Positions 17,171 through 49,150 of a stretch of DNA of 64,000 nucleotides are shown piece after piece (the stretch's first letter is position 1; every line of letters starts with the position of its first letter). Origin of the DNA: Psammoneis japonica (lineage: Eukaryota); NCBI GenBank assembly GCA_008632985.1, contig QPGO01000064.1, forward strand, positions 62,001 to 126,000. The letters run 5' to 3'. Made by a program: the position numbers and the translations under genes. The notes beneath the pieces were generated by a model, which was not told the origin of the DNA, did not search any database, and saw only the letters and a list, made by a program, of their open reading frames with translations.

Positions 17171-17358
17171 TAAGTTTTGCGCGATGACGTGTCATAGGTA
17201 GGCTCGAGCCTCGAGCGAGCTCACTCTTTTTTATTTTTTTGCTGTTGCTGTTTGCTGTGGTTGCGCTGGTGTTGTTGCGTTGGTTGGTGCCGCTTTCGCT
17301 GCACCTCGTTACTGCGTTGCCCGTCGCTTTTTATAAATACATAACCTTCACGAGTGCC

Positions 17359-24843: not shown

Positions 24844-25591
24844 CTGCTGTTGCAAGAACTCTTCACTGCCACGGTTATGAAAACATGCATTTGGGTCCAT
24901 TTCTCAGCCCACTAGTGCTAGGTACCTAGAAGAGAGAAGTAGTTTCGCACGCATTGTTGCTGAAGCTAGTTGAGAAATACTTCTCCATTCAACAAGAGTG
25001 GCTAGTTCAAGGTTGTTGAAAAAGTGGGAATGTGTAGTCGTACAAGTACGCTGTGTACTTAGTCGTACCGGTACGCTCTCTAGCAGGGCCTCTAGGCCCT
25101 ACTCTCTCTAAGCCCTAGAGTAGATTCTCAGAGTAGGGCCCTCTGCTCTCTACTAGAGTAGAGAGACGGGTACGGTATTCTCTTGGACCACGAGATGAGA
25201 CGCCCATTTTGAATTTACAAATTTTTTTTACAGCACTGTACTGTAGCACGTGGAGACCGAGACACGAACACTTCACGCACACAGAATAGTTCGGACAAAC
25301 GTAGAAGTACTTACATACGTGACTGCCAGACGTGCTGACGTGGTTCCGCAAGACTAAATCCTTCAAGTATGAAGATTTAGTATATCGCCTGACTTACGCA
25401 TGTGACCGAGCACACACATCATCAAACCATGATGGGCGGCGTGGGAACAGAACAATTCGATCTGCTTGTAAAACCGCTGAAAACTTGTGCTGACGACGTT
25501 CAACCACACAGATATCGCTTACAAGTTGTTGTTGTTGTATCCTATAAGAGTCCTTGCTGGTGATAGATAGGTGGTTTTTCTTATCGTGAAC

Positions 25592-29137: not shown

Positions 29138-30363
29138 TCATCTCAGCTCATGCCGAACCTCTTGCTGTAATGATATCCCAAATACGTCTTCCATTTTAGC
29201 TAGAACGACGTTTGCTACGTCTTGGACGGAGGGCACGTCATTCTCGGTGGAGGATAAGATTGTGGCTATGCTCGTGACACCGCCATCCTCAACTCCGCAT
29301 GGCAAGATGACGGAAGTATCAAAAAAGCCCAAGTCCACATTGACATTAATGGCGAATCCGTGTGTCGTGATCCACCGGGAGCTCGAAACACCAACAGCTG
29401 CGATCTTATCATTTCCTACCCACACACCTACGAAATAATGGAAATGAAGAATGTTTCAAGGACGTTATTGTGCAAGTAAGCATCCAACACGCGAAGAGAA
29501 ATCGAATCAATCAATGACCCTAGCGATTGAAAAGTCCCCCGTTTTCGGTAGCACGTACCTGTATTCTTTTCATTTCTTGTTGCTGCGATGCCATAATGCC
29601 ACAACGTATCTATCACAACCTGCTCAATTTTTCGTAAGTACATGTGCAGGTCTTGCTCCTGGAGTTTGGCTAAATCCAACATAGGATAACAAACAAGTTG
29701 CCCAGGACCGTGATAAGTCACTTCGCCACCTCTTTCGACGCGGTAGATTGGCACCGAATTCGGTGCCAAGACAGGAAATGATAGGTCTATAAGTGTATAA
29801 AGGGAAAATGTGAATGAAGGCACTCACAATCAACATTATGTTCAGATCTCCCCAAGCTCACCTACGAGGTCATTTACAGCTTTCTCTAAAGATTCGCTCG
29901 GTGGTTGCAAAGCATCCCTTACAACCTGAAGACGATGTTTGTTCATAATAAGTCTTGAAGACTGCAAATCATGGTTGGAACGACAAAGCAAACGTCGAAC
30001 ATCATCATCGTCCTTGTCTTCGAGGAAGGTCAGGTAGTTCTCGTCTGCACCTCGACCCAACGTGTAGACAGGATCATGTTCTAAGAGCATCAACACGTCA
30101 TGATCGTTGAATTTCAAATGTTCTTCTTTTCGTCGTCGACGATCTAATCGATTTTGAAGTAAGACTTGCTGCCATGCCCAGCCTCGAACGTAATCTATTT
30201 TCTTCCCAGAAGAATCAAGAGAGGAATATATTCTTGTCTCATATTCATCATTTTGTACCCGTGCAAAACTGCTTGAGCATCTTCGGATAACATCGTTTAG
30301 CGTAGCGCCATTTCTCCTCTTTGCTTCACTGAAAACATTTGCCAACAATCGTTTCTTCGCCAT
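29138..30363 (-). CDS. lipB: Lipoyl(octanoyl) transferase; exons 30363-29862, 29786-29559, 29427-29138
   Basis: LLEHDPVYTLGRG, RGGEVTYHGPGQLVCYP, GVWVGNDKIAAVG, TTHGFAINV, PCG. Both GT-AG introns are phase-consistent. Confidence 0.92.
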
Positions 30364-30822
30364 GGTCGATGCCGTTGCCGCAGTCCTCTGTGTTGCGTCG
30401 TGTTGCGTGTTGCGGTTTTATCACCATCGCAGAGAAGACGAATAGGTGCAGTCGAATGAGTCATGTGGCATGGAATCGAAGATGGCGGGCGTTTCCTACG
30501 GTATACCGGCTCTGGTTCCATCCACCGAAGCTTATGTATGGTCACTGGTTTACTCTCCCGCGTGAGACTATCTTTTCATTTCAATACATTCTCAAATTGG
30601 GAATTAATTGCTTTAGGGATTGAGATGAGACGACTCGACATCATAATATCAAAGGTGGAATGGAATCCTGCGGTGCTTGCTACCGTACAAACTGTGTTGT
30701 GGGGAACTTTTCACTGCTAGCTGAGGACCAAACCTTAAGCTCTATGGGGACCAAATTCTGAACGGACATTTTTAATAACATAGGTTAAAATGGCTACCTC
30801 GCCGAGCTCGCTTTCAGCACAA

Positions 30823-33177
30823 TTACGCCCAGGGATTAGGACCACTCGCATCGCGTAGATGATTAACTTCAATCTTGTGTGATTTCAAACGATCGCGGAT
30901 AGTGGAGGCTAAAGCGATCTGCCGGGACGTTCGATCCGCGGGAGGGTCCTCTTTGTTGGATGCCTGCTCTTCCTCTTCCTCTTTGCCATCATCGGCACCG
31001 AGCGATTCCAGGATATCATCGACGGCCTTGTGTAACCTAGAAACGTCCGACGATTCTTCGTCATCGTCCGCAGAGAGAGCGAGAAATGCCCGAAGAAAGC
31101 CAATTAATGCCTGCGTCACGGCCATTTCGTCCAGCAGCGGCTTAAGTTCTTCTTCCACATTGTACACTGGTAGCCGCTTGAAACGAGCAGCATCGGTCCA
31201 GAAGAAGACTGCTGCCTTGCGGAGCTTTGTCGCGGGGAGAAGGAATGTCGCCTTGTAGTCCTCTTGATCAATCTTATTAAATCCATCCTCATCCATGGAA
31301 GTTTTCAACAAAGACTCATAAGCCTCTTCTAGAGCGCTCAAATACTTTCTCGCATGTTTCGGATCACCACCTCTCACAAAAGGTGGGATTAACGCCACGA
31401 TCATTGCGGTTAGCACCCCAGTCAGAGTTGCAACAACACGATTCGCGGTGAGATCATTTTTAGTTCCTTTGCCTGTGTACGTTTCCATTGCAATCAATGC
31501 ATTCGTCACTGCAAAAAAGCCCCAGGCATGCGTGCAATTGTAGCCAGCTGCCCCGAGGCGAGAAGGGATGCCCGGCAAGAGATCAAAATTAGCAGCCAAA
31601 AGATTCGTCACGGTCAACCAAGCTACGAGACCATATGGATTGATGGACGCATCATCGTCATAACTCCAACTGCAGACAATGATCCCCAGCCACGCAATAA
31701 AACCACCAAACGCCGTTCCAAGCATGCGCTGAACACCCTTTTTACACGTCCCCTCCAGTGTAACAGACCATGAAAAAGCAAATGTGAGCAGCTCCCACCC
31801 GGAAAAGACATTTCCAACAAATCCGTCATCCGGACGAATAGCGTAATTTGCGTAGGCCTTCCAGTAGACTCGCATAATGAACAAAACGGTAAATCCAACT
31901 ACCAACTTGAGGCCCCAAAGGAAACTCCACCAGTCCCAACTCTTGGGCTTCAAGACAAGTGTCGAAGCGGATGCCACGCGCTCAAGGGGAAGCAACGTAA
32001 GCAAAAAGATCTTGGTCCAGGCCGTGCCAATGTGCTTCATTCCCTGTAGGCAGGACTCTGGAGGCTTGGGGAGGTGCAGATCTTTCAACCACACAATCGT
32101 AGCGTCTCTCACCTGGACGGCTTGCTTGTGCACAAACCAAGTTTCATCGAGACGAGCACTCTCATGGTGTTGATGCTCATCGCCGTTTTGTCCTTCCACC
32201 GACTCTGATGGTGTGGTATCCTCCAATGTCTTGATACTATCTGGGTCATTGGAAGATAATGCAGAGGCACAACCGTTGACGATATCCAGTGTCTCTTTCA
32301 GGGCGGCCTTCTCCGGTTCCGACAACTCAACGTCCTTCTTCCAAGTGGAAGCCAAGAGAGAGTATAGCATCAATGCATCCGTCTGTACCATGAGTTCTTT
32401 GAAGGACGGCACGAGGCTCTCGGCGGGAGCGCGAAAAGGACGCGGTTCAAATAAAATCATGTTGGCAATGGTCCCTTCTGCAATGATGGTCCATATATGG
32501 ATAAACTTTCCCTGCACCTGTTGTAGCTTGCCCCCAATAAGGGCAGCTACCAGATGAAGCGCACCGGGCAACACCCCGGCGGAGAGCGTGTTTCGGGCCG
32601 TCCGAATAGGAGGTAAAAGAACGACAAAAGCGAGCAAGGCGACGCCCCAGCAAACCGCAATCAAAAAGTTGCGATAAAAGGCGTTGGGGTTGGTGGTGCC
32701 TCGTTCCGTCCAGAGGTCTCCAATAGCAGACAAACCGTCATCACCTTGTCTTTCCTCTTCTTCGACTGCTTCAAAGTGCGACAAGGCCAACATGGCAGCG
32801 ATTCCAATCTGAACGTTGGCCAGCGCTACAGTCTTGTCGTAATGCGGACCAAAGAAGAGACTCACCATGAGCAAACAAAAGATGGCAAAGATTGCCACAA
32901 AGAGTCCGTCCGAGACTGTCGCCGCTGCGAGAAGCATAGTTGAATACACCGAAGCCAATACAAAGGCAACAATAACTGAGGGCAGGAGGCCGGGGATCCG
33001 AAAGAACAGACTCGGCAGGCTAAATGACAGGGCCGTTCCGACCAACGTCACAAAGAAGGAAAACGCAGGTGGGACGACCTTGGGGATCTCAGCAACGCCG
33101 AGACAGTAGCTTCCCAGCAGACAGAGGCCCAAGCGGGCAAGAGATTCCGCTTTGATGCGATCCGGTAGCCATTTCAT
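30823..33177 (-). CDS. Aromatic acid exporter/FUSC/ALMT-like membrane transporter
   Basis: 784 aa with two multi-TM blocks. EGTCKKGVQRMLGTAFGG and NRVVATLTGV motifs. Confidence 0.75.
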   Translation of the reverse strand: MKWLPDRIKAESLARLGLCLLGSYCLGVAEIPKVVPPAFSFFVTLVGTALSFSLPSLFFRIPGLLPSVIVAFVLASVYSTMLLAAATVSDGLFVAIFAIFCLLMVSLFFGPHYDKTVALANVQIGIAAMLALSHFEAVEEEERQGDDGLSAIGDLWTERGTTNPNAFYRNFLIAVCWGVALLAFVVLLPPIRTARNTLSAGVLPGALHLVAALIGGKLQQVQGKFIHIWTIIAEGTIANMILFEPRPFRAPAESLVPSFKELMVQTDALMLYSLLASTWKKDVELSEPEKAALKETLDIVNGCASALSSNDPDSIKTLEDTTPSESVEGQNGDEHQHHESARLDETWFVHKQAVQVRDATIVWLKDLHLPKPPESCLQGMKHIGTAWTKIFLLTLLPLERVASASTLVLKPKSWDWWSFLWGLKLVVGFTVLFIMRVYWKAYANYAIRPDDGFVGNVFSGWELLTFAFSWSVTLEGTCKKGVQRMLGTAFGGFIAWLGIIVCSWSYDDDASINPYGLVAWLTVTNLLAANFDLLPGIPSRLGAAGYNCTHAWGFFAVTNALIAMETYTGKGTKNDLTANRVVATLTGVLTAMIVALIPPFVRGGDPKHARKYLSALEEAYESLLKTSMDEDGFNKIDQEDYKATFLLPATKLRKAAVFFWTDAARFKRLPVYNVEEELKPLLDEMAVTQALIGFLRAFLALSADDDEESSDVSRLHKAVDDILESLGADDGKEEEEEQASNKEDPPADRTSRQIALASTIRDRLKSHKIEVNHLRDASGPNPWA

Positions 33178-34899
33178 TTTTTGTTTTTGTTGTCTTGTGA
33201 CAAAGTATGGCGGATTGGGATATTAATAGATTGATTCTCCCTCCTGTTCTCTCCCAAAAGATTTCGGGAGTGTTCTCTGAGTTCTTGATGTTTTTTTGAT
33301 TTTTGATGTCCCCGCGCGCCAGCCTGATGAACGAGCGCGGTCTTTGATGCCGACATGACGTCACAAGCATTCTTCATCAGCTGCATCTATCAGGCACCAA
33401 GTCGAAGTGAGCCAAAGCAACCAGTCTCTGCCACAAGATGTCGGCATGCACTGTCCCTTGCACGATGAGCGATCCTACAACATGTCATGCACAACAACAG
33501 ACTGCTTTTCCAAGAGCTGTGGTGCTTCATGGAAGCAAAGGGGTTGCCTTGAGAGAAAAAATTGTCTTGTTGTGTGCCACCTTTTTGTGATGGCGGCTCC
33601 AAGAAGAGCTTTCTCACACAGCTCGGAAAATGAGGTTCTGCTGCTGTTTGGAAATTTTTGAGGGGATTTGCAGCACAGTCAGAGCTGCCTCCTCTCCCTT
33701 CCTTTTGGTTTTCCCAAACACCACAGTTTGCACCTGTGCCAAAAGCACAGCTGCTGCCAAAGATGACCTGGCGCTGACGCCATGGCTCTGGTTTTGTGAA
33801 AAGTTTGTTGTGTGCCATGACCTTGCAAAAAATGAGAAGTGCTTCTTGAGCATCTCTGGATGAACCAGGTGCAGGCCACATTTCAGCACTCTGCAATGCC
33901 CCCCACCCAGGGAGGCTGGGAACTCCTTGCGCATCACATGGCCTTGGCATTTTTGTTTTGTCTGCTGCCGCGCACCTCTTTCGCAGCTGCCCAAACTCTC
34001 CATCAACCCCGTGCAATGCAATGTCATGCAACACATCTCTTTTGAAGCATGGCTCCATGGGACAATGCCACCTGCACATCTTGCAAAACAGATTCTCCAT
34101 TGTTGCTGCTGCAACCCAAAACTTGCATTGACAGCAGAGCTCTTTCAAGAGGCTTTGTCGCCTGTCACTGGTGCCACACCCCCCACTTTGGCAAGCTGCC
34201 AAGAGACATGCAGAAAATTTTTCTGTCATCTTGGTGTGAGTCACATGTCACTTGAAACCCTCTGAGGCCAGGCCACTCATTGCAGTGATTGGGAAAAATC
34301 TTGTGCTGTCACAGCTCCAAGATTTTGGCAGCAACACTCAAGTGTTGTCAGTGCTGCTGCTGCATTGTCATTCCTGGGAGCCAATTTCAGCACCATGTCA
34401 ACCAATGGCAAGGACTTGCTCAATTTTTCCACTTCCTTTTTGACATCAGCACAAGCAAGCTTTTCCTCATCAGCTTCTTTCACACCAGGCCATGTTGTTG
34501 CAAGTGGCTGTGGCCCAGGACACCACCACCAGCACGAGCAACACAACCCCCCCAAGCCAACTTTTGCTTTTCTGGCATCATCACAGCGAAGTTGTTGGAG
34601 CAGCTCCTGTTGCACCAGGGTTGTGTTCTGCTGATGCAGCAGGCCTTCTCTCTCCCACATCTGTGGCACAACGCTGGTGAGAAAGTTGACTTTCTCTCCC
34701 AGTGCCAAGGCTGACTCAGCCTTTTCCTTGTCAAGATTGAGCTCTCAAAGTTCAGTGTCTGTGGACATGAGCTGCTCAGCTTGCTGTTGGACAGTGTTTC
34801 TGCAACAACCACCTGTTTTTGTCCATGCATGGAACACATGCCTTCCTCATGTGGCACATGCAGCAGGCTCTTGCAGCTGAGCCAAATGCCTTGCAACTT

Positions 34900-37100
34900 G
34901 GTTTGCTCAACATGCCAGCGCAGCTCACATCTTCCTTTGTGCAGCTTTGAGCACAAAAAATGGTTTGCTGTGCTCTTTTGTTGATGTCCAGTGCTGACCC
35001 AGTCAGAGATGTCACCTCCAACCTTGTGCTAATTTGGCATGTTCACCAGCTTTGTGCTGAGCACATTTGGCAACTTGGTGTCCATCCAGCAGAATGACTT
35101 GTTGTTGATGCCAAACCTGTCACAAAGCTGGGGTGGATGGCCATGGCAACCCACCTGGCGTCCAGTGATGTTGTCTTTGGCAGCTCAGCTGGCACTGAAG
35201 ATTTGCTGTGTTGGCAGCTTTGGCAACTCAATCCACAGCTGAGAACTTTGTTGCCTCTGTCCATGATGCCAGCTGATGAATTGAGTTTGTTGCAAATTGT
35301 TTTCATGTTGAGATGAGTTGACATCTTGTCATCCAAAATGGCAAAGAATTCCTCCACCCCCACACACAACGATGAAAAAGGGAGGCTGTGTCAGCACGTG
35401 GATTCAGAGGCAAATCAATGACAATGCAGCCACTTGCAAGTGTGCAACGCAGCCATGAATTTGCCGAGGTGGTTTTTTTGTGCAAAACAGAGGCAACTTC
35501 ATGCTTGTGTTGTTTGCAAGTGCCTTGCAAAGCATGTCGTCTGGTCAGTCTTTGTGAACCTGCATCACAATGAGGAGTCCTTTTCAATTTTTGGCACAGA
35601 TGCAAAGTCAACTTGGAGAGGGCAATGATGTGCACTTTCTTTGCTCCCTCTAATGTGTTTTTGTGGAGTTGACTGCATCCCTTGACAAAGTTTGTGGCAA
35701 CATGAAAATTGTCCTCCATTTCCTCAAGAGGACAAGATGACCATTGCAGTTGGTCAAAAGAGTGGTGTTGATGGGAACAGTCTTGCATTGTTGGCTGGTT
35801 GTTGCAGCTCCCTTCTCAATGCTGTTGGCTGTTGTCTGACTCATCACCAATGCAAGCAGCAGGTTCATCCAGCAGGTCCTCCATCAGCAAAGCACTGGGG
35901 GTGCCTTGAGAATCATGTCATTTGCATGTCATCTGTCATTGCAGGTTGGTGGGTCTGACCAAGAGCTGCTGTGGTGGTTTGAGGACTCCTGAGGCTGTTT
36001 CACATTGGAGCACACACTGAGAAATGCCAGTTGCTCCTGCTGCTTTGGCCATCTGCCCAGCTGTCTCCTCACTTCAACATGTCTTGCAAATGAAGAATGA
36101 AGGAACCAGGCAACAAATTTGATGTGCTGATGTTCCTGAATCAGCGCTGTCCTCACAAACAAATGAGTGATCTTGAGGCACAACTGCTCCAAATCTTTGA
36201 CAACCTTGGTCCTGCACTTTTTGTCCTTCAAGGCTTCCCAAAAGACATGGTCAGCAACAGCCCCTCCAAGCCTCCCCTGCAATGTGGCAAGGAATCTCTG
36301 ATGGCTGTGCCATCTTTTTCAAAATGTTCCACATCAACCTTGTTGCAAAAGCATGGCAGCAGATTTTTCACAAAAGAGTGAAAGGGGCTGACAGTGGAGT
36401 GAAGATGCTTTCTCTTGGAGCCAACTCTTGCTGTTGATGCTGAACAAGAGTGAACATCACAGTGAGATTCAAACCACAGTGGCAACTGCGTGCATTAAAA
36501 ACACACACAAAATGACAAAACAAAAATGCTCACATCATTGCATTGTTGTGTGAACAACTTTTCAGCGCATGCAAGGAAAACAATCATGTGCAGAGGCTCA
36601 GCAACACAAGCTTCAGCTGAGCGGACCATTTGTCAATGCAGCTGGTTGACACACCCATCAGTGCTTCAGCAGCTGGGATGCCCATTGAAGCGTCAGTTGT
36701 CCATTGAGCTGATGCTCTTCCTTTGTCCATGGTTGGCATGTCTTTCAAACACAGGCTGTTGAGATGTTGACTGCCGCCAAAGCCAGCTGTTTCAAACAAC
36801 AGCACAAAGATGACAATGAAAATGGGGCTTCCCCAGCACAGCCAGAGCACAGATGTCACAACCAGTGTGTTCAGCAAAGCAATGACAGCAGTGCAAAGTT
36901 GGAGCCAAAGCTGTTTGTTGCAGCTGCAAATGGGCATGACATGTGACAACTGGCATTTGTTGTTGAACACATGGAAATGAGCACATTTGTCGATGAAGAA
37001 GTTGAGAGGAGTGAAAACTTGCCCATTTGGAGCTGCTGCATGCATTTCATTGCACAAGAAGAAAAAAATGGCTCAGTTGGTTTGTGCTGTTTGCACTGGA
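34900..37100 (-). mobile_element. Degenerate Plavaka-like transposase relic
   Basis: QVFTPLNFFIDK (like PIIxFIDKT), RDSLPHCRGG and FHVATNFVKGCSQLHKNT (like FGxxxNFDxGxxExxHK) occur in the expected order. Confidence 0.45.
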
Positions 37101-37479
37101 TTGCACGCACTTGCACGTCAGAAAATTCAGATGGTTGCAGGGGACTGCACATGGCTCATGGCTCTGCATGAATTTTGAAATTTCAAACAAAGCGTGCAGT
37201 GCAGCAGGATGATGAAAATGGCAAAGATGCCACACATGAATGGGCATCAAACAAAGACACAAACCACAGCCAAATCAATGAGTGATGCAGCATGGCTCAG
37301 AAGCCAACAGAACAAAGTCTGTCATTGTTGCTGCTCCTCCTTTAATTGCACAAATTCAGGTTCACCAGTTGTGCACAATGCTGGCAAAGCTGTTGCCAGC
37401 GAACTGATTCAAGAAGATGCAAGCTTTGCTGAAAAGTTGGAGACACGCAGCAACTCCTCCACTGCAAGAGGGAAAGACA

Positions 37480-37850
37480 AGAAGCTGAAGATGCACCCAG
37501 CAAGACTCTGCCCCTCTTTGTGGGAGCTCCATGGCAGCTGCAAGTGCCTGCATGGGAAGACACCAGCTCAGTGTCTTGCTCCACAGAAGATGGCAGTGAT
37601 CATGGACATGGGCTGGAGCCCATCATTGTCCCAGATCATGCAATGGATCTGGGTGCATTGTGTGCAGCAGGTGCTGCCAAGGCAAGTGTCACACAGCAGA
37701 CAGGAGCCAAGGAAAAGGGCAGCCATGGAGGATGGTCACCAGAGGGGCTTGCAAGGTGCCATGATTTGGTGGACCAGGAGATCAAGGAAAAACCAAGTGT
37801 CAAAAGAAGCACAAAGACAAAACAGAGCACTCAGGATGCTTGAATTGTGA
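37480..37850 (+). mobile_element. Relic of TE-associated accessory ORF
   Basis: HGGWSPEGLARCHDLVDQ resembles the YxGWSxEGxxRYNxL motif, with Tyr replaced by His/Cys. Confidence 0.4.
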
Positions 37851-38586
37851 GGAAGCTGTCAAGGCGCAAGTGGATGACAACAGGAAGCTTGAGAGGAGGA
37901 AAGCTGTTGGCAAACTGTTGGATGCCATCAACTTGACAATCGACACCCCTGTCAGCAATCTTGAGATGGAGGAAGTCCAGCTGAGTCATTTCATCACTGT
38001 TTGAATGGTGCACAAAGCTTGTGTGTTGCAGCCAAAAAAAGTTGCCAAGCAAAAATGGATGGATGTTTTGGAAGAAAACATCCAGATTTCACCCGCTGAC
38101 ATTGCAGTCAAAATTGCCAAACATTTTAAAACAAGTTTTGAAGCATGTGGGCAGTTTCACCAACTGACAAGCTTCAATTTTTTTTGCAGCTGCAGTTGGT
38201 GCAGTGGTGTTTTGCAGCAAAATGGATGATCAGAGTTGCATGATGCCGTGACTCTGGGGGCGGCTGGAAAGTGCTTGTGTGAGGCCAGTTTTCTCTTGAG
38301 CCGGTGGCTGCCAACAACCACTCTGAGAGCACCCAGCAGCTTTGAACTCAGCAGCACATGTTGTGACATCACAAACAAAGTCAAAGAAAAGAAAAGAAAA
38401 GAGAGGAGGGAGAGAGAGTTTGCCATTGGGGCCACTTTTGCAGCAGCAAAGTCCAAAGAAGTTGTCAAAAAGAGCCACACATTGCTGTGGTGACTTGCAC
38501 AAAAAACACACGGGGGCAGTCTGCACAGATTCCATGCATGGCCAAGTGTGTGAAGTTGTTTCCAAATGCCTTGTGTGGTTGTTGTT

Positions 38587-40380
38587 GGAGCATTGCCATT
38601 TTGTTGACCAAGCCCACATTGGCTCAAGCACTCACAGACTTGCCACATGGGTTGCAATCACATGTCTCATGCTGTCACCGGTGCTGCCACTTTGCCTCTG
38701 TGTTGGCCTGGCATGCGGAAGCCAAATGGTGAGAACACAAACCAGTCTTCCTCAGAATTTGAGGAGGCAAGTGCTCAGCATCATGCACACTTGTCAGCAA
38801 TCTTTTTGCTGCAAAAGTTGTCTGGTGTTTGTCCTTCCAAAAACATCCTTGAACCTCAATGTTCCAACACACTCCTTCACATGAGCCATTGACAGGTTGG
38901 CCTTGTGTGCTCCAGTCAAAGGAGGACAACAGCTGGAAACCCTGCCACCCAGTGCCATGCCACTCAGTGTGACTCTGGACCCTTGGCTGACCTTGTCCAA
39001 CTCCACTTTTAAATGGCCATCATTGCTGTTGAGCAAAGGACAGTCATTCGTTGCATGCCAAACTTTGTCACATTTCCAGCACTCAAGCTGACTCTTCTGT
39101 TGCTGTGGCTGCAAAGCTTGCACCCTCAGGTTTCTTGTTGGTCGTGTGCATGTCCAACACCTGTGGCACCTCCTTGGCCAACTTGGGACAATTGTCAACC
39201 CCCAATGCAAGCTGCCAATGCAGGTCTTTCAAGATGTGCCAACATTTCTTTTGGCAAGTGCCCTCCACTGGCATCACAGCCAACAAGTTGTCTCTCATTC
39301 TTCTGGGTGTCATTGGCATCCGCGCTGAACCCAGCAGCTTCTTTCTTGGCAATTTCTTCCAGGATGGTCCTGCCACAGGACCTTCTTGCCATCTCAACAA
39401 ACTGCAACAGTGTCAAAATGCCTCTCTCTTGTCTTGACAAATGAGCGCCAGCTGCTTCCATGCCTTCATGGCCTGAGTGTGCTGGCTGGTGGAGTCTGGT
39501 GGCACTTGCATTCAAAAATGAGATCAGCCCCAGAATCTCCAACAGCGCTGCCATGTCAAACTCCTTTGCAACCCATGCAAACTCTGTTGCTCCTTCAACT
39601 TTGTGATGGGCTGCCTTCACACACTGCCCTGCAGCTGTTTTGAGCACTGTTGCCTTCTGTGCCTTGTAGATTCTGCCCTCTTCCACACAGCGACTGCATT
39701 GTTTCCCCGAGACTGCTTTGTGCTTCTCCAGCACAGATGCACCAGACAGATGTTCCAGCTCCTCTGGCTTGCTTTCCTGCCTCAAAGATGCTGGCTCCTG
39801 CATCTCTGGCCCAGACATTCTTCCAAGGTGCTCACTTGTCTTTTTTGTGATTTTTGTGCTTCCACCCCAACTCAGTGATGGCATCATGGTGCAACCACTC
39901 TCCTTGCAGTCTTTCACGCTTCTTCAAGGCTCTCCAGAGATTGTTTCTTTGCTTGCGGCTCCCTGAGCCAGGGTGACAAAATCTCATGAAGCCACCCCTT
40001 TGACTGGAGAACAGCAAATCAACAAACCACTCTTGTCAGCCCAGCAAGCTCACATGCCACAATCACTTGCACCAACCAGGTCTTAGACTCCTCTCAACTT
40101 CCCAGCCTTCCCTTGGGATTTCTCTCAACTTCCCAGACCTTGTGCCTTTTGGCTTCTCTGTGCTGGAGCTTTGCCATTTTGCTGACCAAGCCTGCACTGG
40201 TTTGAGGAGCCATCCCAGACTCATCACATGGACTGCACAAACACACATCCTGTGCTGTCACAGGTGCTGTCACTGTGCCTCTGTGGCTCCATGCCAACCT
40301 GGTGCAGAAACTGAAAAGTGAGGACAAACCAATCTTCCTTGGAATTTGAGGGTGCAAGTGGTGCTCAACATCATCCACCC
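38587..40380 (-). mobile_element. Degenerate gag-only LTR-like element B
   Basis: Direct repeats 38587-38790 and 40165-40380. Zinc knuckle CWKCDKVWHATNDC and GVDNCPK (like GxDxYPK). Collinear with element A. Confidence 0.65.
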
Positions 40381-40779
40381 TCACAAAATGAATGATGTTC
40401 TTCTGCCATTTTGAAGAGCCTTTTCAAGTTCTGGCAGCACCGCAGCCAGATGGCAAAGATTGTGACCCCGATTCCACACCTGCCACACACCGCCGCTGAA
40501 ACAATGTGCGCAACCAAGAACAACAAAATGCTCACACACAGTGTGTCTGTTGTGTTGTTGCTCCTGTGTCCATTGTCGTAAAACTGAGAGAAGCTGCACT
40601 GTTCCATTCACACGGGCCTGCCACAAGGCTGTGCAGGCACCCCTGCCAGGTTTCAGAACGCAGTGCATCCTCTGACTGTCTCAGAAATCTGAGGTTGAGT
40701 CTTGCCTTGCAATGGTTGGGTTCCCTGAGACAGCACCATTGTCTCCTCTTCAGGGCAGGGTCAGTGGTTGCTCCACAGC

Positions 40780-42890
40780 TGGCAACTGTGTCAATCGTCC
40801 AATTGCTCAAATGATGGCTGATGGCACAGTTGTGGGAAGAGGTTTGGGTGCAAAAAATCTGCATTGAAACCTGCACTGCCATCAACATTTTGTCAATCAA
40901 AGAAAGGCTCAATGCTGTGCAGAATCAACTTCAAATGTTGTGCAATGACCAAAAGCAAGAAATCGCAAATCAGATCATTGATCAGGTTAATCAACGAAGG
41001 GGAAGATTTCTTCTCACAAAGGCAATTTCAAGCTAAAGTGACAAGTGTCCATGTCACATGAGGAGGTGGACAAGCGCACAGCTCTGAAGAAGTGCTTGCA
41101 CTGACTTTGAGAAAAAAAGAAAGCCACAAAGGCAACTGCATCTCTTGTTGAACAGGTGCATCATCTTTGTCAACAGCAGAATCTTTTCAGACAAACAGCA
41201 GAATCTTTTCAGACAACATGATGTCTTGTTTGGCCCCATGTCCCCAGCGCATGACCACATCAGAAATTGTTGCTTTTGTGTGCCAGTCAAGAGGAGAGGG
41301 GAAGAATGTGTGCAGGCTCAAACAACAAAGGCAAAGAAGGAAATTGCAGCGCAAGTGCTTGACAAGGTTGTGTTGAGGGGTGGGTGATTTCTTGGCAAGA
41401 ACCCATCCAAGAGTGGCAGTGGTTGCTTTGCTTGGGAGGAACTGGGTGTGAGCAAAGCTCTTCAGAAGTGCTTCAATGCTCTCTGAGAAAAGAGAAAATC
41501 AACTCCAAACCACGACATTGCATGTGCTCAGGTGTGTTGGATTTCAATCATCATCTCTCTCCCACAAAAGCATCTGTGAATGAGGTTCAATTGATTCAAG
41601 ACACAGAAGGAATTTTGCTTTGTCCTGTGTGGCAGCAAGCCCAAGTGCACAAGCCAACTGTTTCTCCCTTTGGTGCGTCAATCAGTGCGCTTCAGTCAGC
41701 CCAGCAACCAACTGATTTTTGCATTGTGTCAGAAGACCTGCAAAAGGCCTGCATTCTCCATCAGGAAAACATGCTGATGGAAGAAGGTGCGGCTGGATTT
41801 TGCTCAATTCCATGCAAAGTGTCCCGGAACACCCTGCGACACCTCTGGAGGAACAAGAAAGGGAAAGACAAATGCTTTTGGAAGACAAGAAACTGCCAGT
41901 CCTGTCTGACCCAGTTGGCAAGAAGTTGCATGGCAAGGAGCAAATGAAACAGAACATGGGAGCACTGTCAGGTTGATGAAACATGAGATCAACCTGATGC
42001 CCATGCCCAGAAACATGCTCTTCTTGAAGCACAATTGAAGTGTCACCCTGAAGAGTTCAGTGATTCAAGGTTGAAGGCTTTCCTTTGCCACTCTGATCAG
42101 AATCCAAAGGTCAACAAAACAGAAATGACAGATGTTGCAAATTTTTTCCACCTTTGTCCTCCATCTAAAGAGCGCGCCATGTCTGTTCCCTTTCATGATC
42201 GCAGCCTGCCACAGAAAGGTTGGCATGTGTTGTTGGGAGTGCCGCAAATGAGCACTTGGGTCCAACAAGTGCTGCCTGCCCATGGCCATTGATGGCACCT
42301 TGTGTGATGATGTGGTTGCTCTCCGTGCTGGCTTTGCCACCATGTGCTTCCACACACCATGATGGCTCTGGAAGGCAGATGACATGGGTCAACATGTTGT
42401 GGCACACAGGGATTCGACACGTGAATGAAAGCCTGGCAAGGTTGCTTTTCACGTGTGGCTTGTGCGTCCAAAGAAAAGCACTGTTCTGACATTTTGTGTG
42501 GCTTCCTTTCAATTGAGATTCAAGCAATGTGGCATCTTTGCGAGATTCTAATTCCGCAAGATGCAGATGGCAGGGGAGTGATCAGAATCCCGCACAGTGC
42601 AAAAATGCAACAATGTTGCACATGTGTCCCAAGCAACTCTGTCCTTTTCTGGAGTTCACCAGAGATTGTTGGCCAATCAAAGTGAGCGTGGATCATGTCT
42701 TGAGCATGTCTCAAGAGGTGACGAGCTCACAGCAGAGCTTGCCAAGTGTGGAATGCTTCGGGACATGCTGCCAACTGAAGTGGGAGGAACAGTGGAAGTG
42801 AGGCACAATGAGTGGATTGCTGCCAGGCAAAAGATGGAAAGTGAAGAGCTGCACACACGCCATGTCCGTGGAGGACAGCCATGAGTCAAT
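40780..42890 (+). pseudogene. Hypermutated paralogous copy of the DUF6824/CRAL-TRIO gene at 43693-46038
   Basis: Collinear homology, e.g. 42262 ccaacaagtgctgcctgcccatg vs 45351 ccaacaagtactacctgcccatg. Contains stops, frameshifts and a mutated splice donor. 3' flank homology extends to ~43160. Confidence 0.92.
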
Positions 42891-43692
42891 GGGGCCCTTT
42901 TTTAGAGAGCTTGTCACACTGGCTGGACACTGTGTGCCAGGTGCCGGATGTCACTCTTAGAGTCATGCTTGACCCAAAATGGACAGTGTCCTGGGACATT
43001 GACAAAGTCCTCAGGGCAGCTCAAGGTTGTGGCATGGATGCAGTGCCGCTTGCTCCTCCAGCACTCAGAGCAGTTTCCTGCTCTCCACACGGCAGTCCCA
43101 GCCAGCTGGACAGGCTGGGCCCCACAGTGTGTTTTAAGAGGGTGCCAGAGCATTGCCGCATCCCTTGAGGGCTGCTCTCTAGTAGAGTGCCCTCTGACTC
43201 TACTCTACATGCTCTAGCTAGAGTAGAGAGTGTAGAGGGCACCTTTAGAGCGGGGACCAATTACAGTGTTAACATTCGCAACGTGCTGTGACAGGGCCCT
43301 GAGTGATGACGTGTAGCATGACGCCATGTGCAATCATTGACTCGCGCGCGCTGCGCAAGCAAGAACACAACACATGCATCGAGTTCTTCAACATCACAGC
43401 ACACACCACACACGGAACGCGAACGCCACGGTCTGTATGGTATGTATGGTGTTGCAGCACCTGCTGATAGATCGCATTAGCCAGTTTCTTTGTCGCTTGG
43501 CTAACTTTCGGTACTCAACATACACATACAGTGAAGGTGAAAGGTGGGGAACTGTGCATTGGTTTCCATTTAGTACGAGGCGCGAAACTTGCTGTTAGAA
43601 TCGCAACACTCTTTTGCTTGTTGCAATACTCATTATCAAAGAACATCCTCAGTGCTATCCTACTGTAACTCTCTGAATGTTTGCCGAAGAAA

Positions 43693-46038
43693 ATGACATC
43701 GGCTCTGCAACGCGGAATTGAAGATTGTTCAACCACTCTCCCTACCTGTGCAAATCGCTCCATCGTCGAAGTTTCGTCTAATGACGTAGTTATGGGAAGA
43801 GGTTCGGGGGCAAATAATCGACGTGGAAACCGGTACTTTCGTCAGCTTGTCGATCAAAGAAAAGCTGAATACTCGGTCGCAACAACAAAGGAGAGGAAGA
43901 GAGAAATCGCGAGAGAAATTATACGCCAGGTTCATAGGCGAGGAGGAAGGTTCCTTCTAGTAAAGGAAACTCCGGACGGAAGTGGCGAGGGCGCACATTA
44001 CGAGGATGTGGACGAGCTAACAGCTATGAAGAAGTGCCTTCATGCACTCAGAGAAAAAAAGAAAGCCAAGGCTGCACCTTTCGTAGAACCGGTATGTTCG
44101 TTGACTATGTTTGTTTATTTGTTGAGTTTCGTCGTTTTAAGGTGATGAACATATGCTCTCTCAACTTTCGTTTCAGGCATCTGACGTTTGTCAATCGGTC
44201 ACCGAAGGCTTTGCGATTTCTCTAATGAATCATTGTGGCCGTGAAGAGCAGAATCTATTCCGACCGGATGATGTCTTGTTTGGCAGCGTGTCCCTGACTC
44301 ACGACTATATCGGAAATCGTCGTTTTCGTTGGCTTGTCGAAATGCGACAAGACGAATACTTGCAGGCACAAACAAAGAAAGAGAAGAAAGACATTGCAAC
44401 GCAACTGCTAAACGAAGTCTTGTCGAAGGGCGGACGATTTCTTTGCGAGAACCCATCCAAGTTAGCCCTTGGTTGCTTTGCTTATGATGAATTGGGTGCC
44501 CGTAGAGCTCTTCAAAAGTGTCATCAGGCTCTCCGAGAAAAGAAAAGGTCATTTTCTAACCACCACGATATACCTTGTGTTATTGAGAAGGTATGTTGAT
44601 TTTCAGTGGGAATACCTTTTCACCTCGCATACTGTTTTTCAACAATCACCTTGTTTGTTCGAGTAGCCCACAAGCGCGCATGGCGATGATGTTCAATTGA
44701 GTAATGACACGGGAGGGACGCCACCTTATCCTTTGGGGCAAAGCTATGCTCCAGGCGTTTCGCCCTTCGTGTTGTCGGATAAGTCTCAGTCAGGCGAGCC
44801 ACCGGCTGATCTGGGCCTGGCGACTAACTGGCGAAACACCGATGTTCTCAATCAGAAGGACATATTGACAGAGAATGAGGCAGCATGGTTTGTACTGAGT
44901 TCCTTGCAAAGTGTTTCGAAACGCCCGGTGATACCTCCGGAGGAACAAGAAAGGGAAAGACAAATGTTGACAGAAGACGAGAAATTGCTAGTCTTGTCTG
45001 ATCTAGTTGGTAAGAAGCTCACATTGAGTCCCAACGTACATATCAGACAGAAACATGACCGCGCGTTCCTCTTGATGAAGCGTGAGATCGATCATATACC
45101 CGTTGCTCAGAAGAGTGCTCTTCTCGATGCACAATCGAAGTGCAGCCCCGAAGAGTTCAGCGATTCGAGGTTAAAGGCGTTTCTTCGCTTTTCCGATTGG
45201 GATCCAAAGGTGAAAGAACTTCTGCAACCTATGTCTATGGGTGCGTCTTGGCTCACTGTACTAGTGCTAACTATTATGTCTTTCATGCTTTACAGGCCGC
45301 CGCGGAAAGGTTGGCATATTATTGGGAGTGCCGCCGACGAGTTTTCGGATCCAACAAGTACTACCTGCCCATGACCATTGATGGCGCGTTGCGAGATGAT
45401 ATGGTTGCTCTTGATACTGGCTTCGCCACTATCCTTCCTCACCGTGATGGTTCTGGGCGGCAAATATTATGGGCGAACACGTTACGTCATACTGGTATTG
45501 GATATACAAACGAAAGCCTGGTACGTGTGTTGTTTGGCATGCCGCTTGATAATGTCGATTTGACTCAAAAATGATGTGACCGTCCTTCCCAACTCAGATT
45601 CGAGCTGTGTGGTATCTTCATGAGGTTTTGATGCGGCATGACACACATGGTAGGGGTGTCATCCGGATCCCGCAGTTTAGAAATGCGACCATGTTGCATG
45701 TGTATCCCGAATATATCTGTCCTTTTCTAGAGTTTACGAGGGATTGCTGGCCAATCAAAGTGAATGCCGATCATATATTGAACATGTCCCAAGAGATACG
45801 AGACTGGTTGGAGCCGTTCCTTCTTGCAGCTTCGGGCAAGCATGTGCGATTACGTTCCTTAAATCATAACGTCCCAGAGGACGAGCTCATATCAGAGCTT
45901 GCCAAGTATGGAATACTGCGAGACATGCTACCAACTGATGTTGGCGGAACGGTGAAGGTGAATCATACTGAGTGGATTGCTGCCAGACTAAAAATTGAAA
46001 GGGAAGAGCCATATGTCTACCACTTCTATGAAGAATGA
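43693..46038 (+). CDS. Two DUF6824 domains plus CRAL-TRIO-like domain; exons 43693-44091, 44177-44590, 44667-45209, 45296-45520, 45598-46038
   Basis: DVVMGRG...GNRYFR...GGRFL...KKCLHALRE pattern twice, AFLRFSDWDPKAAAERLAYYW...VFG, LPTDVGGT. Four in-phase GT-AG introns. Confidence 0.88.
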
Positions 46039-46269
46039 CTCCGTGGCTTTCGGGGACGAAGTCAGAAAAGGTCAGAAGAAGCAAAGTCATTCTAGGATGC
46101 CTTCCGTGTTTTGGTGTCAGCTGGCGGAATAGATTGCTCTCGCTTGACATCGTAGGATGACACACATGTTAGGTAATCATGGGTACATCCACTCCGGCCT
46201 CCAGACCTGGTTGAATAAAGATCGCACAGCATGGACTTCATGCCTGCTTGGAGCTGTAGCTTCGCTTCG

Positions 46270-46540
46270 AGATAGACTCTCTCTCTAGTAGAGAGAGAGA
46301 GTAGTAGGAATAGATTGAGGCTTTTTGGCCGCGTCATCACGTCATCACTACTACGGTAGAAAAGAGAGAATAGCTACTCTAGCTCTAGGAGTATATTTTT
46401 TGAATATTTGTCTACTCTACTAGCTACTCTCTAGCTAGCCTCTCTAGCTAGCCTCTCTAGCTCTACTCTACTCTCTCTACTCTCTAGCTACTACTACTAG
46501 TAGAGTAGAGAGTACCGGTAGGGCCCTCTCTAGAGAGAGA
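46270..46540. repeat. CTAG/CTAC/GTAG-rich palindromic low-complexity tract
   Basis: ctctctctctagtagagagagag and ctagctactctctagctagcctctctagctag. Similar tracts at 18160-18210, 20059-20115, 25070-25170 and 43175-43250. Confidence 0.8.
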
Positions 46541-46803
46541 AAGTAAAGAGTTGCACTCTTCACTCATCTGACAAACGCGCGAAACAAAACGCGCATGCCT
46601 AACTTGAAGTTGAACCGCTCACAAATCCGTGCGTTCGTTGCGTCCAAGGCAAACAGACCACACAAGCAATTAGCTCCAACGCGACGCAACCTGACCAGCA
46701 CCATCGCAACGTGGAACCCGCATTTCTATCGATCACTCGACGCAGCATAAAGCAAAATCGTTTTGACATTGATCTCTTAGTCTACTTTTTAAAATAAACA
46801 ATC

Positions 46804-47269
46804 ATGTCGTTCAATATTCCTCCCGCTCAGCTGGCGCAATTAATGCGGGACATGCAGGTCAGTACGAGAAAGAACAGAGGGTCTTCTGTTGTTTGTGCCG
46901 AAGAAAAATATGAACATTCTACCACAAAGGAGATGTCGTCTGCTACCAGAATGCTCACTACAGAAACTTTTTGTCCCCCGTTAGGACCCTGAAATGATGA
47001 GAGAGGCCCAGAAAATGATGCAAGATCCTGCTTTCCAGGCGCAAATGAAAAGAGTGACAGAATCACAACAGTTTCAGAGCCACATGAGCAAGACTAAGGA
47101 AATGATGAAGGACAAAAAGAAAATGAAGGAAATGGAAAGCAAGGTACAAGCGGCTCTCAAGGAAGGGAATGAGCAGCTAGACGCCATGGAAGAATCTGAG
47201 AAGCCGGCCGTGGAAGACGACGAGAAGAAACCGGCAGCGGAAGAGGAAGAAACTTCCGAAGAGAAGTAA
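46804..47269 (+). CDS. Small STI1-like (DP-repeat) protein; exons 46804-46857, 46985-47269
   Basis: Splicing gives MRDMQ|DPEMMREAQKMMQDPAFQAQM, followed by an acidic tail. Confidence 0.8.
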
Positions 47270-47356
47270 ATAGTGCTTCTACGCGTGGTATCAATAGACC
47301 AAATCGGTTACAAGTTACAAGCTCTGTTTTTGTTTTTGAGCGTGCCCGGATACGAA

Positions 47357-48625
47357 TCATTCCGCACTATGGTTTAGCCATTCCAAAATCTGTTCATCCG
47401 ATAAATCGCGCACCCTAACACCTTTGCCGGCGGTTGAGTACCCCAGCTTTGGCGAATCGAATGTTTCTACATCGTCGTATCGATTCGCAACAGTGGAAAT
47501 CCAAGGAAACAATTTTGAATTCAGAATGTATCCCTTCCCAACGGAAGAAATCGTGGCAAGCACACAGAATGTCGAAGGACCACATATCGTTTGCTTGGCT
47601 GTAATCATACGTGCATAGGTTTGTGCAATCGATTCGGTAGAAGGATCGTTGTAGACACTGACCCTTGCGTGAGGAAACTCCTTTTGGAGGTAGGAGACTA
47701 AGTCGTCCACAATGACACGACAACGCGCACCAAAGGGTCGGTCTAGTTTTCGCAAATGGGCCGAATCAAAGGGTTGCGTCAAGATTGATATGGACCGCAT
47801 CGAATCCCCGTTGAATTGTTTTGCAATCAGTCTCGCAAAGACATTATGTGGCAGCAAACCGTAATCTCTGTTTTTGGTGTCTAGCACATCCCCACAACGG
47901 TAGTGTATAGCCACATCTGAGGTACCGACATTGGTTGTCAACTTTTCTGCAATGGACCGATAGTCACGTCGAATGACTTCAGCAGCCAAATCGATACTAG
48001 GTGAAATACATTCGTGCGGAAACTTGGAGTCGCAATTCTCGCAGATATCTGCTAATGAATGTGGCACGTTCGCGGCAATGTCAGATTCAACACCATCTCC
48101 AACAGTGGTATGCGCTTGCTGAAAAAGCGAAATAAACGTATTTGAGGCATCTTGCGAGATATCTGTTCCTTTGTTCTTGCACTGAAACGTGAAGGATGCT
48201 CCAGCAGCTTTTGCCATTGCCCACGCCATGTATATTCGTGGCATTCTGTTTCCAAGCAGATTGTCTGTACAATCTGGCTGTTCGTAGACCACTCGTCTTT
48301 CCTCGCCTGGCATATGATTTTCCGAAAATGCTGCCTGTAAGATTTCGCAAACAGACTGATTGCGATTGTACCCGCCAACCGTAACGACATTCAGGTGCGT
48401 CGCTTCAAACGATCGATTCTCGTTGTCGTGTCGTGTAGACGCATGTGACTGATTAGATGTTTGTAACGTTTCAAGCGATTTCCTAGATCGTAGTCTGATA
48501 GGGCTATTTTGATCCGAAATCTCAGAAAGCACCGGAGAAGATACCTTGAGATAAAGCAGAGCGAACGTCAACAGACTACCGATTTGCGTCATGCATCGTG
48601 CAGACTTGATTCCAAAAAGTTTCAT
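47357..48625 (-). CDS. Type II membrane glycosyltransferase-like protein (fucosyltransferase-type motif)
   Basis: N-terminal TM, LGNR, DVAIHYRCGD (HxRxGD), ICGPSTF. Confidence 0.7.
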   Translation of the reverse strand: MKLFGIKSARCMTQIGSLLTFALLYLKVSSPVLSEISDQNSPIRLRSRKSLETLQTSNQSHASTRHDNENRSFEATHLNVVTVGGYNRNQSVCEILQAAFSENHMPGEERRVVYEQPDCTDNLLGNRMPRIYMAWAMAKAAGASFTFQCKNKGTDISQDASNTFISLFQQAHTTVGDGVESDIAANVPHSLADICENCDSKFPHECISPSIDLAAEVIRRDYRSIAEKLTTNVGTSDVAIHYRCGDVLDTKNRDYGLLPHNVFARLIAKQFNGDSMRSISILTQPFDSAHLRKLDRPFGARCRVIVDDLVSYLQKEFPHARVSVYNDPSTESIAQTYARMITAKQTICGPSTFCVLATISSVGKGYILNSKLFPWISTVANRYDDVETFDSPKLGYSTAGKGVRVRDLSDEQILEWLNHSAE

Positions 48626-49150
48626 TTCTTCTGATATATTGTTTACTATGAAGACAACTCCCTTTTGTTTTCTTGTAACTGTCTTGTGGTTGTTAACGAG
48701 ATGCTACGAGTTGGTCGCCTTCCTTGGTTTTTAAGTTGTGCTTTTTGTGGTGTTCCTTTTCTGCTTCAGCTTTTGCCGCCACGACTCAATCAATTCGCGA
48801 CTATTCAGTCTTGCTTTTGATTCAATTACCATATCTTCAATGCCGGTTATATAAATGTACAATAAAACAGAAACATTGGTTGCGCATACTGTATCGTGCC
48901 CAGCAGTTCGTGACTCCTCGACTTGCTCAAAACGATGATGCGTTCCTTGCACTGCACACACAAACCAATTCCATAAATGTTTGAGAGCAAATCATGATGA
49001 TGGTCTTAGCAAGCATGACTCACGCCCTACTTCTCTGCACTCTTCTATATATTCATAATACTTTCAGAGATTGTTCTCGGCCTGGGTTCGCAATTGGACA
49101 ATTGGACCATAAATTCAAAGATAGGCGTCAAATAACTCACGCGAGACACG

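Follow-up and report, generated by a model that had tools for sequence, protein, structure and literature searches.

Sharp-edged blocks depleted of TpA and CpG in the genome of the diatom Psammoneis japonica and their probable origin by hypermutation in place

The subject of this report is a 64-kb stretch of the diatom Psammoneis japonica (assembly GCA_008632985.1, contig QPGO01000064.1, positions 62,001 to 126,000), referred to below as the window, from which all the results presented here derive. The window carries long open reading frames (ORFs) of eukaryotic type that encode kinase, ankyrin, CwfJ/RRM, P2X, Hint, FtsJ, rhodanese and BTB proteins, and between them lie blocks of DNA that have lost nearly all TA dinucleotides and most CG dinucleotides, and that are correspondingly rich in TG and CA. 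A preliminary scan in sliding 500-bp windows revealed depleted stretches with observed/expected (o/e) ratios of 0.00-0.10 for TA and near 2 for TG/CA. Segmentation with a two-state hidden Markov model (HMM) on P(A|T) resolved these into five sharp-edged blocks with a sum of 21,309 bp or 33.3% of the window (Table 1). This bears out an earlier note, made from the letters alone, which had described about a third of the window as poor in TA and CG, rich in TG/CA and sharply bordered; its coordinates are right to ~50-160 bp, and two of them, 13983 and 14895, are the exact flanks of an inserted miniature inverted-repeat transposable element (MITE). The blocks contain the relics of a retroelement and a dead host-gene paralog, and they were probably altered where they now stand.

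The depletion is close to saturation. Only 41 TA are present in the blocks where 870 would be expected at the density outside, and 234 CG where 1136 would be expected, so that the TA o/e spans 0.016-0.075 against 0.595 in the rest of the window. The o/e of TG and CA rises to 1.58-2.04 across the blocks, while the GC content is close to that of the surroundings (0.48-0.49 and 0.476, respectively). The longest run free of TA measures 1598 bp, which at the outside TA density has a chance probability of e^-66.6. By our own arithmetic the summed o/e of the four pyrimidine-purine (YR) steps is about equal inside and outside the blocks, which matches the prediction of pure transitions at TA and CG. 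Block ORFs are short of tyrosine, a trivial consequence of the missing TA. The earlier note had stated that ORFs of 270-284 aa contain none, and this holds for ORFs of 285 and 271 aa, while a third, of 276 aa, has one tyrosine. Further skews accompany the main ones: AT is lower inside than outside (o/e 0.77 vs 0.95), as is GA/TC (0.93 vs 1.16), and both the GC step (1.30 vs 1.03) and AA/TT (1.27 vs 1.10) are higher. Simulated conversion of TA and CG in the outside sequence reproduced the TG/CA excess but not the low AT and the high GC step; the unreproduced AT, GC, GA and AA skews could reflect a non-coding origin, C->T changes at TpC, or a weaker side activity. The smallest block also holds a near-palindrome at 1527-1635, with 53-nt arms that are 81% complementary and a 3-nt loop.

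Table 1. Features of the window, with counts and o/e ratios of TA and CG where they apply (positions count from the first letter of the window; LTR, long terminal repeat; TIR, terminal inverted repeat)
Feature	Position	Strand	TA (o/e)	CG (o/e)	Details	Basis
Small TA-free segment	1494-2018		1 (0.03)	20 (0.64)	525 bp; mild CG loss	HMM
Hypermutated block	3856-7592		7 (0.028)	45 (0.21)		HMM
Hypermutated block	9097-13998		5 (0.016)	40 (0.138)		HMM
Hypermutated block	14882-17122		11 (0.075)	25 (0.189)		HMM
Main hypermutated block	33231-43134		17 (0.026)	104 (0.176)	9.9 kb; TG/CA o/e ~1.8	HMM
Sequence outside blocks			1743 (0.595)	2276 (0.941)	TG/CA o/e 1.16-1.18	
LTR-like gag retroelement relic	38583-40384	-			terminal direct repeats 38583-38794 and 40161-40384	self-BLAST
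Gag-like ORF in relic	39198-39923	-				homolog search
CCHC knuckle motif in relic	39040-39081	-			downstream of gag-like ORF	motif scan
Second, independently mutated element copy	11533-13299	-			repeats 11533-11771 and 13070-13299; degenerate knuckle 11927-11968(-)	
MITE-like insertion, unmutated	13984-14894				911 bp; perfect 21-nt TIRs (100% complementary); GTTT at both flanks	
Decayed, intron-bearing DUF6824 paralog in block	40740-42950	+			67% identity to 43700-46100	
Intact DUF6824 gene just outside block, unmutated reference	43669-46038	+			two domains, E 5.8e-22 and 9.5e-17	Pfam

Two kinds of content can be recognised in the blocks. One is an element of ~1.8 kb with terminal direct repeats of ~230 bp, present in two copies according to self-BLAST; judged by sequence, both are relics of one gag-bearing, LTR-like retroelement. 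Among 1.84 billion representatives the gag-like ORF has 14 homologs, the best at E 2.9e-23, and a Pfam zf-CCHC domain is present in two of these homologs. The knuckle is the sole stop-free match in the window to C-X2-C-X4-H-X4-C, which we take to be the CCHC motif, and neither knuckle segment gave a Pfam zf-CCHC match with the E limit relaxed to 10; its identification thus draws on the motif, on its sole stop-free occurrence and on the homologs with zf-CCHC. A set of Logan contigs of a run (X1; word depth ~61, contigs up to 315 kb) covers 30001-50000 and may stem from the same sample as the window, so that it is not independent at the sample level. Over the element copy in the main block the X1 word depth reaches 164-342 against ~61 elsewhere (3-5x), which together with the two copies in the window makes the element multi-copy in the genome.

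The second recognisable component is a decayed copy of a DUF6824 gene, whose intact counterpart lies just outside the main block. The read-through frame of the block copy still matches DUF6824 at E 4e-11 (~41220-41486). The two are old tandem paralogs, with homology limited to the coding part with its introns, and the commonest phylum in the Atlas clusters of DUF6824 is Bacillariophyta, in keeping with a diatom source. A metagenome scan based on DUF6824 found no relatives, and a search for related sequence among longer proteins found none. Beyond these features the blocks are mostly mute. Pfam searches of 177 stop-to-stop block ORFs of at least 70 aa gave only sub-threshold chance matches. In a six-frame read-through of 18.5 kb (38231-43134, 33231-38230, 9097-13998 and 3856-7592, with stops as X; block 14895-17122 was scanned only as ORFs of at least 70 aa) DUF6824 was the sole Pfam domain, with none in 3856-7592 or 9097-13998. 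Self-BLAST of the window in a purine/pyrimidine alphabet brought up no additional hidden homology. No recognisable homolog was found for 33231-38580, 3856-7592 and 9097-11500, and ~15 kb of the blocks are without a recognisable domain. The claim that the blocks coincide with transposable element (TE) relics therefore stands for one gag element in two copies; the 18.5 kb yield no TE protein domain, and the main block includes a host-gene paralog. Over 33.3-38.7 kb the X1 word depth is the same as over the flanking genes, which hints that this part of the main block is single-copy, depth being a weak measure.

The tandem paralogs provide the most direct view of what happened to the blocks. With the intact copy (43700-46100) taken as ancestor-like, the 66 TA that it has in well-aligned columns correspond in the block copy (40740-42950) to 24 CA, 23 TG and not a single TA, which amounts to conversion of 47 of 66 and retention of none. 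Its 92 CG correspond to 29 CA, 28 TG and 7 CG, and the remaining dinucleotides are 42-71% conserved. The polarised alignment thus displays the excess of TA->TG/CA changes that the earlier note anticipated.

Repeated sequences within the blocks tell the same story from another angle. If ~40% of YR steps in normal sequence are TA or CG, two copies mutated independently should show CA in one and TG in the other at ~20% of shared steps. The terminal repeats of the copy at 11533-13299 disagree in this manner at 14 of 54 shared YR steps (3 of 53 in a control that counts double changes at purine-pyrimidine, RY, steps), those of the copy at 38583-40384 at 8 of 49 (control 3 of 43), and the internal parts of the two copies at 57 of 188 (control 15 of 190), which places the mismatch between TG and CA at 16-30% of shared YR steps overall. 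Terminal repeats, if they are LTRs, are identical at insertion, and the changes would then be later than insertion.

The gag-like protein retains a trace of its former composition. Seven intact gag homologs contain 4.3-7.0% tyrosine. In 19 columns where at least three of six aligned tyrosine-rich homologs have tyrosine, the window ORF has cysteine in four, histidine in three, phenylalanine in three, serine in two, tyrosine in one and a gap in six, that is, cysteine or histidine at 7 of the 13 aligned positions. Both amino acids are single-transition products of TAY codons. Five gag relatives (P0004, P0010, P0012, P0014 and P0016) resemble the window ORF in having at most 0.9% tyrosine and 5-9.4% cysteine plus histidine (8.6-9.4% in three of them), with cysteine or histidine at 11 of 15 aligned conserved tyrosine columns in P0004 and 9 of 11 in P0014. 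These tyrosine-poor relatives come from small ENA and JGI metagenome contigs, and judging from their protein sequences hypermutated copies of the gag element probably exist in other data sets. Among 42 metagenome loci that encode gag relatives none is TA-poor (TA o/e 0.47-0.86), which removes the alternative that the family is TA-poor by nature. Six loci (L002, L020, L037, L038, L039 and L041) are CG-poor, with a CG o/e of 0.03-0.24 and a normal TA o/e of 0.66-0.81, and represent CpG decay without TpA loss in other organisms. The loss of TA is hence neither native to the gag family nor an automatic partner of CG loss. The block pattern is the product of region-restricted mutation, by transitions that turn TA and CG into TG or CA, and not a native composition.

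The manner in which the process operated can be read from its outcomes. In the paralog alignment TA became TG in 30 cases and CA in 30, and CG became TG in 32 and CA in 36; the outcomes form 63 runs where 65.1 +/- 5.7 are expected. The variation of TG versus CA per 300 bp within the blocks is binomial (chi2/dof 1.00, against 1.63 outside). Every site was resolved by itself, with the two strands equally likely to be hit. Strand symmetry and the absence of clustering argue against processive editing of one strand in the style of APOBEC, ADAR or repeat-induced point mutation (RIP), and favour many independent single-site events. From the block counts (TG+CA 4867, TA 41, CG 234) it can be estimated that at equilibrium TA would be lost ~59x and CG ~10x faster than the reverse changes occur. 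Pooled over six true borders, the TA o/e falls from 0.71 in the outer 150 bp to 0.04 in the inner 150 bp, while the CG o/e declines gradually inward, from 0.43 (0-300 bp) through 0.25 (300-1000 bp) to 0.09-0.15 deeper. TA itself is slightly more frequent near the edges, with 8 in the 1800 bp within 300 bp of an edge and 20 in the 13.6 kb deeper in. Since the 525-bp block has lost its TA with little CG loss, and CG loss is weaker at the edges, the TA arm of the process appears to be the faster one; a single common intensity gradient could explain both profiles.

The MITE provides an internal contrast to the block that it interrupts. Its 500-bp windows at 14001 and 14501 have a TA o/e of 0.74-0.82 and a CG o/e of 1.03-1.20, and it has a GC content of ~0.40, no long ORF and weaker pairing of its ends to ~50 nt. 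The inverted repeat occurs nowhere else in the window, 100 shuffles yielded 0 chance matches, and there is no second copy of the element within the window. The GTTT at its flanks is a probable target-site duplication. The insertion split one older block, 9097-17122, into the parts 9097-13983 and 14895-17122, and its untouched state implies that it inserted recently, that it is not a target, or that the process has stopped.

The blocks occupy the intergenic space and stop only shortly before the start codons. In the main block the left edge is ~60 bp upstream of the ATG of a FUSC_2-domain gene, 30823-33222(-), and no more than 285 bp separate the right edge from the point downstream where the first X2 contig of the DUF6824 gene begins; the remaining block edges lie 66-272 bp from the ends of neighbouring ORFs. 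X1 contigs spanning 30001-38888 and 39113-43869 bridge both borders of the main block, which excludes an assembly or polishing artefact, though not one at the level of the sample. Inside the main block X1 and the window differ at eight fully supported positions; all eight differences are transitions and six of them are CG<->TG/CA, so that CpG turnover in the block appears to be ongoing. A 6-nt insertion (GATTTC) in X1 at 33266, just inside the left border, and a cluster of differences at 49519-49846, outside the blocks, represent variation between alleles or strains. The run X2, though labelled 'DNA?', probably consists of RNA reads, because one of its contigs skips 44589-44664, an intron of the DUF6824 gene with GT..AG ends after a 2-nt shift. 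The X2 contigs do not cover 33336-43340 save for a depth of 2.45 at 38672-39338, a gap that is not evidence of silence.

Several other features of the window deserve mention. Directly outside the right border of the main block, at 43137-43260, lies a group of short inverted repeats in which CTAGAG/AGAGGGCACC is frequent; the group has a 10-nt word in common with the MITE end and may be the terminus of an element. Two rhodanese-domain paralogs in the same orientation, 2532-3584(+) and 17188-18066(+), ~71% identical over 360 bp, bracket the entire mutated region of 3.9-17.1 kb. The ankyrin-repeat ORF at 25571-28894(+), 1107 aa in length, contains an internal duplication of ~1.2 kb (27473-28707 vs 25883-27114) with 67% identity, or 85% at the purine/pyrimidine level.

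How did the blocks arise? In our view they are stretches of nuclear DNA hit in place by hypermutation that combines TpA-specific and CpG transitions, a reading to which we assign a probability of about 0.7. The blocks would consist of ancient relics of retroelements, together with a dead paralog of a gene and sequence that can no longer be recognised, all mutated after their arrival at the present place. The CG arm would be the ordinary deamination of 5-methylcytosine (5mC) in a domain that is presumably methylated, as the earlier note proposed; 5mC deamination fits the CG->TG/CA changes and the predominance of such changes between X1 and the window, and DNMT5a has been tied to DNA methylation and TE repression in Phaeodactylum tricornutum (PMC9998398). 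The TA arm would be a second, TpA-specific A:T->G:C activity like that seen in mutation-accumulation lines of the chlorarachniophyte Bigelowiella natans (Mettrop et al., bioRxiv 10.64898/2026.01.13.699255). This precedent supports the second A->G activity that the earlier note postulated, and means that a system of which the earlier note knew no description is not undescribed. The enzyme may be, at a guess, an adenine deaminase of the ADAT2/TadA type that acts on DNA and is drawn to foreign or putatively silent chromatin, with the resulting inosine read as G at replication. A TadA/ADAT-like deaminase was one of two candidates put forward before, and the B. natans authors propose the same type; the other candidate, DNA polymerase eta (pol eta), agrees poorly with the undepleted AA/TT. 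Adenine deamination appears to be the most likely chemistry. A->G is indistinguishable from T->C on the opposite strand; thymine oxidation or misdirected T:G repair would be alternatives. The outcome would be the permanent inactivation of anything in the domain.

Several points weigh against this reading. The hypermutated regions of B. natans are reported without an excess of G:C->A:T changes, whereas CG has been lost in the diatom blocks (bioRxiv 10.64898/2026.01.13.699255). The read-through of 18.5 kb uncovered no viral or TE enzyme domain, and a foreign origin is indicated only for the gag element. TA is involved in none of the eight differences between X1 and the window, which thus give no sign of present activity of the TA arm. 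Comparing the paralogs takes the intact copy as a proxy for the ancestor, and comparing the terminal repeats presumes that they were identical at insertion. Finally, the 41 surviving TA are biased in context: 14 lie in TTAA (8-fold enriched), 16 in CTAA/TTAG, 7 in GTAA/TTAC, 2 in ATAG and 2 in CTAC, with none in RTAY. They are absent from the contexts ATAT, ATAC, GTAC, ATAA and CTAG within the blocks, and TTAT does not occur at all, yet its precursor words are common there (TCAT 271, TTGT 446). The bias could reflect an enzyme preference or a biased re-creation of TA. Surviving CG are enriched 3.45-fold in GCGC.

Instead of a dedicated activity, the loss of TA could be a by-product of repair in a methylated domain, either through a T:G-mismatch glycosylase that, in analogy to very-short-patch repair in E. 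coli, resolves replication mispairs at TpA toward C:G or through error-prone synthesis by pol eta (WA->WG) set off by 5mC deamination. The two losses do share the same blocks, both are slightly weaker toward the block edges, and site-autonomous, strand-symmetric outcomes are what a slow, chronic process would produce; aberrant repair initiated by TDG has been documented in human cells (PMC4041421). We consider this explanation unlikely all the same, since CG was lost without TA at 6 of the 42 related loci, the 525-bp block lost its TA with little loss of CG, and TpA hypermutation in B. natans is described as proceeding without an excess of G:C->A:T (bioRxiv 10.64898/2026.01.13.699255). The pol eta route is disfavoured in particular because AA/TT is enriched in the blocks rather than depleted as its WA motif would demand, and A->G changes in AA context stand at background level in the paralog alignment (AA->AG 14/136, AA->GA 17/136). 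ADAR-type hyperediting was ruled out by the 30:30 and 32:36 outcomes, the lack of clustering and the fact that an intron-bearing paralog is affected. RIP proper, which the earlier note had rightly set aside because TpA is destroyed and not created, was excluded by the direction of change (TpA o/e 0.03, CA o/e 1.8), the intact tandem paralog and the number of runs. A more loosely RIP-like process, in which homology triggers the mutation of duplicated DNA in the sexual cycle, perhaps with DNMT4 responsible for the CG arm, would account for the sharp borders and for a multi-copy element within the blocks, and the RID-related DNMT4, whose function is unknown, is reported from 8 pennate and 23 centric species among 60 diatoms (PMC9998398). 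Such a process has little in its favour otherwise: one member of the tandem pair, at 43.7-46.0 kb, has escaped although the other is saturated, strand-coordinated runs are absent, TpA moves in the wrong direction, X1 depth, albeit a weak measure, hints at a single copy of 33.3-38.7 kb, and the B. natans process is vegetative and acts on a single-copy insertion (bioRxiv 10.64898/2026.01.13.699255).

Two explanations would do without hypermutation altogether. Foreign or TE DNA might have evolved without TA and CG under selection, for instance to escape nucleases or methylation, and as most block sequence lacks a homolog its ancestral composition is not directly checkable. For the alignable parts a native composition is already largely refuted: 16-30% of the YR steps shared between copies read TG in one and CA in the other, TA and tyrosine are at normal levels in the intact paralog and the intact gag relatives, and the blocks retain no coding capacity for selection to act on, all of which renders the idea very improbable. 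An artefact of sequencing, base-calling or assembly at modified bases has in its favour that the stretch occurs in one sample only and that X1 is perhaps the window's own source. It is scarcely credible in view of the k-mer contigs (depth ~61) that give the same sequence and bridge both borders, the one fixed outcome per site, the 7-14% transversions and indels that accompany the pattern in diverged paralogs and repeats, and the tyrosine-poor, cysteine- and histidine-rich gag relatives on ENA and JGI metagenome contigs.

A bolder form of the hypermutation hypothesis holds that both self-complementary YpR steps are erased by one and the same chromatin-targeted system of DNA editing, which is shared across algae of the SAR group (stramenopiles, alveolates and Rhizaria). 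We regard it as doubtful. The agent could be a dual A and C deaminase of the ADAT2 type, an activity for which the preprint cites amphioxus BjADAT2 (bioRxiv 10.64898/2026.01.13.699255), or a 5-methylpyrimidine oxidase acting on T and 5mC. If this were true, CpG loss would go beyond passive decay of 5mC, the editing system would count as an ancient arm of genome defence, and the survivor bias, with RTAY all lost and TTAA kept most, would be the fingerprint of the enzyme.

Hypermutation in place by a TpA-specific activity along with CpG decay would have implications beyond this window. The first report of TpA-directed hypermutation in silent DNA dates from 2026, and the process has so far been measured directly in one unrelated alga only, a chlorarachniophyte (bioRxiv 10.64898/2026.01.13.699255). 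Its saturated footprint in a diatom would mean that the process is not peculiar to one species and that it shapes genomes in a main group of ocean primary producers. Worth following beside the B. natans findings are the saturation, the co-occurring CpG loss, the non-viral targets and the context fingerprint. The window adds an end state, with a TA o/e of ~0.03 and relics invisible to domain searches, as well as evidence of in-place, site-by-site action on both strands and of TA loss that is able to run alongside CpG decay. Annotation of TEs and viruses in such genomes will miss hypermutated relics. Scans of dinucleotide content could chart the process in algal genomes, and contrasting species that have blocks with those that lack them could give a lead to the enzyme.

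Among known systems, fungal RIP resembles the diatom blocks in being an irreversible, transition-only hypermutation of selfish DNA with sharp borders that hides relics from similarity searches. It differs in its chemistry and logic: RIP turns CpA into TpA and thereby enriches the dinucleotide that is erased here, and it mutates both duplicates, whereas one tandem paralog has been spared in the window and strand-coordinated runs are missing. The CpG decay of methylated TEs is matched by the conversion of CG to TG/CA in TE-bearing DNA (CG o/e ~0.17) and by the dominance of CpG transitions in present polymorphism (6/8), but CpG decay leaves TpA untouched. In Escherichia coli, very-short-patch repair and the depletion of CTAG offer a methylation-linked case in which a TA-containing word is eroded by T->C; this effect belongs to bacteria, runs through the whole genome, is tied to the Dcm context and is much weaker than that in the diatom blocks.

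The closest relative is the process in B. natans. A literature search found no description of TpA-loss hypermutation in diatoms, and the B. natans preprint was the sole report of it anywhere. In its mutation-accumulation lines Mettrop et al. observed TpA->TpG/CpA hypermutation in integrated viral DNA: 231 of 302 nuclear point mutations fell into two viral insertions, where almost all were A->G or T->C and all were at TpA, at a local rate of ~6e-7 per site per generation or ~1000x the baseline (bioRxiv 10.64898/2026.01.13.699255). Hypermutation occurred in 11 of 15 lines during vegetative growth, and the larger region is an integrated nucleocytoplasmic large DNA virus (NCLDV), single-copy and transcriptionally silent. 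The same authors list 124 TpA-poor, CpA+TpG-rich clusters in the genome and 324 TpA-poor coding sequences enriched in reverse transcriptase and DDE endonuclease domains, and they propose an ADAT2/TadA-type DNA adenine deaminase. The diatom pattern agrees in that TpA becomes TpG or CpA on either strand and in a strictly regional manner, that the affected sequence is mostly unannotatable, and that all five blocks fall within the B. natans cluster thresholds (Rho_TpA <=0.43, Rho_CpA+TpG >=1.52). It departs from B. natans, a rhizarian, in that the host belongs to another SAR lineage, that depletion is saturated (TA o/e 0.016-0.075 vs 0.45 in the NCLDV region), that the recognisable targets are an LTR-like gag element and a dead host-gene paralog rather than viruses, and that the signature is read from sequence, while in B. 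natans the mutation rate was measured. The main text of the preprint makes no mention of CpG, diatoms, stramenopiles or flanking context, and the context bias of surviving TA and the independence of sites have no counterpart there. On the dinucleotide evidence, the window matches what a saturated, long-term form of the B. natans-type signature would look like in another lineage, combined with CpG decay.

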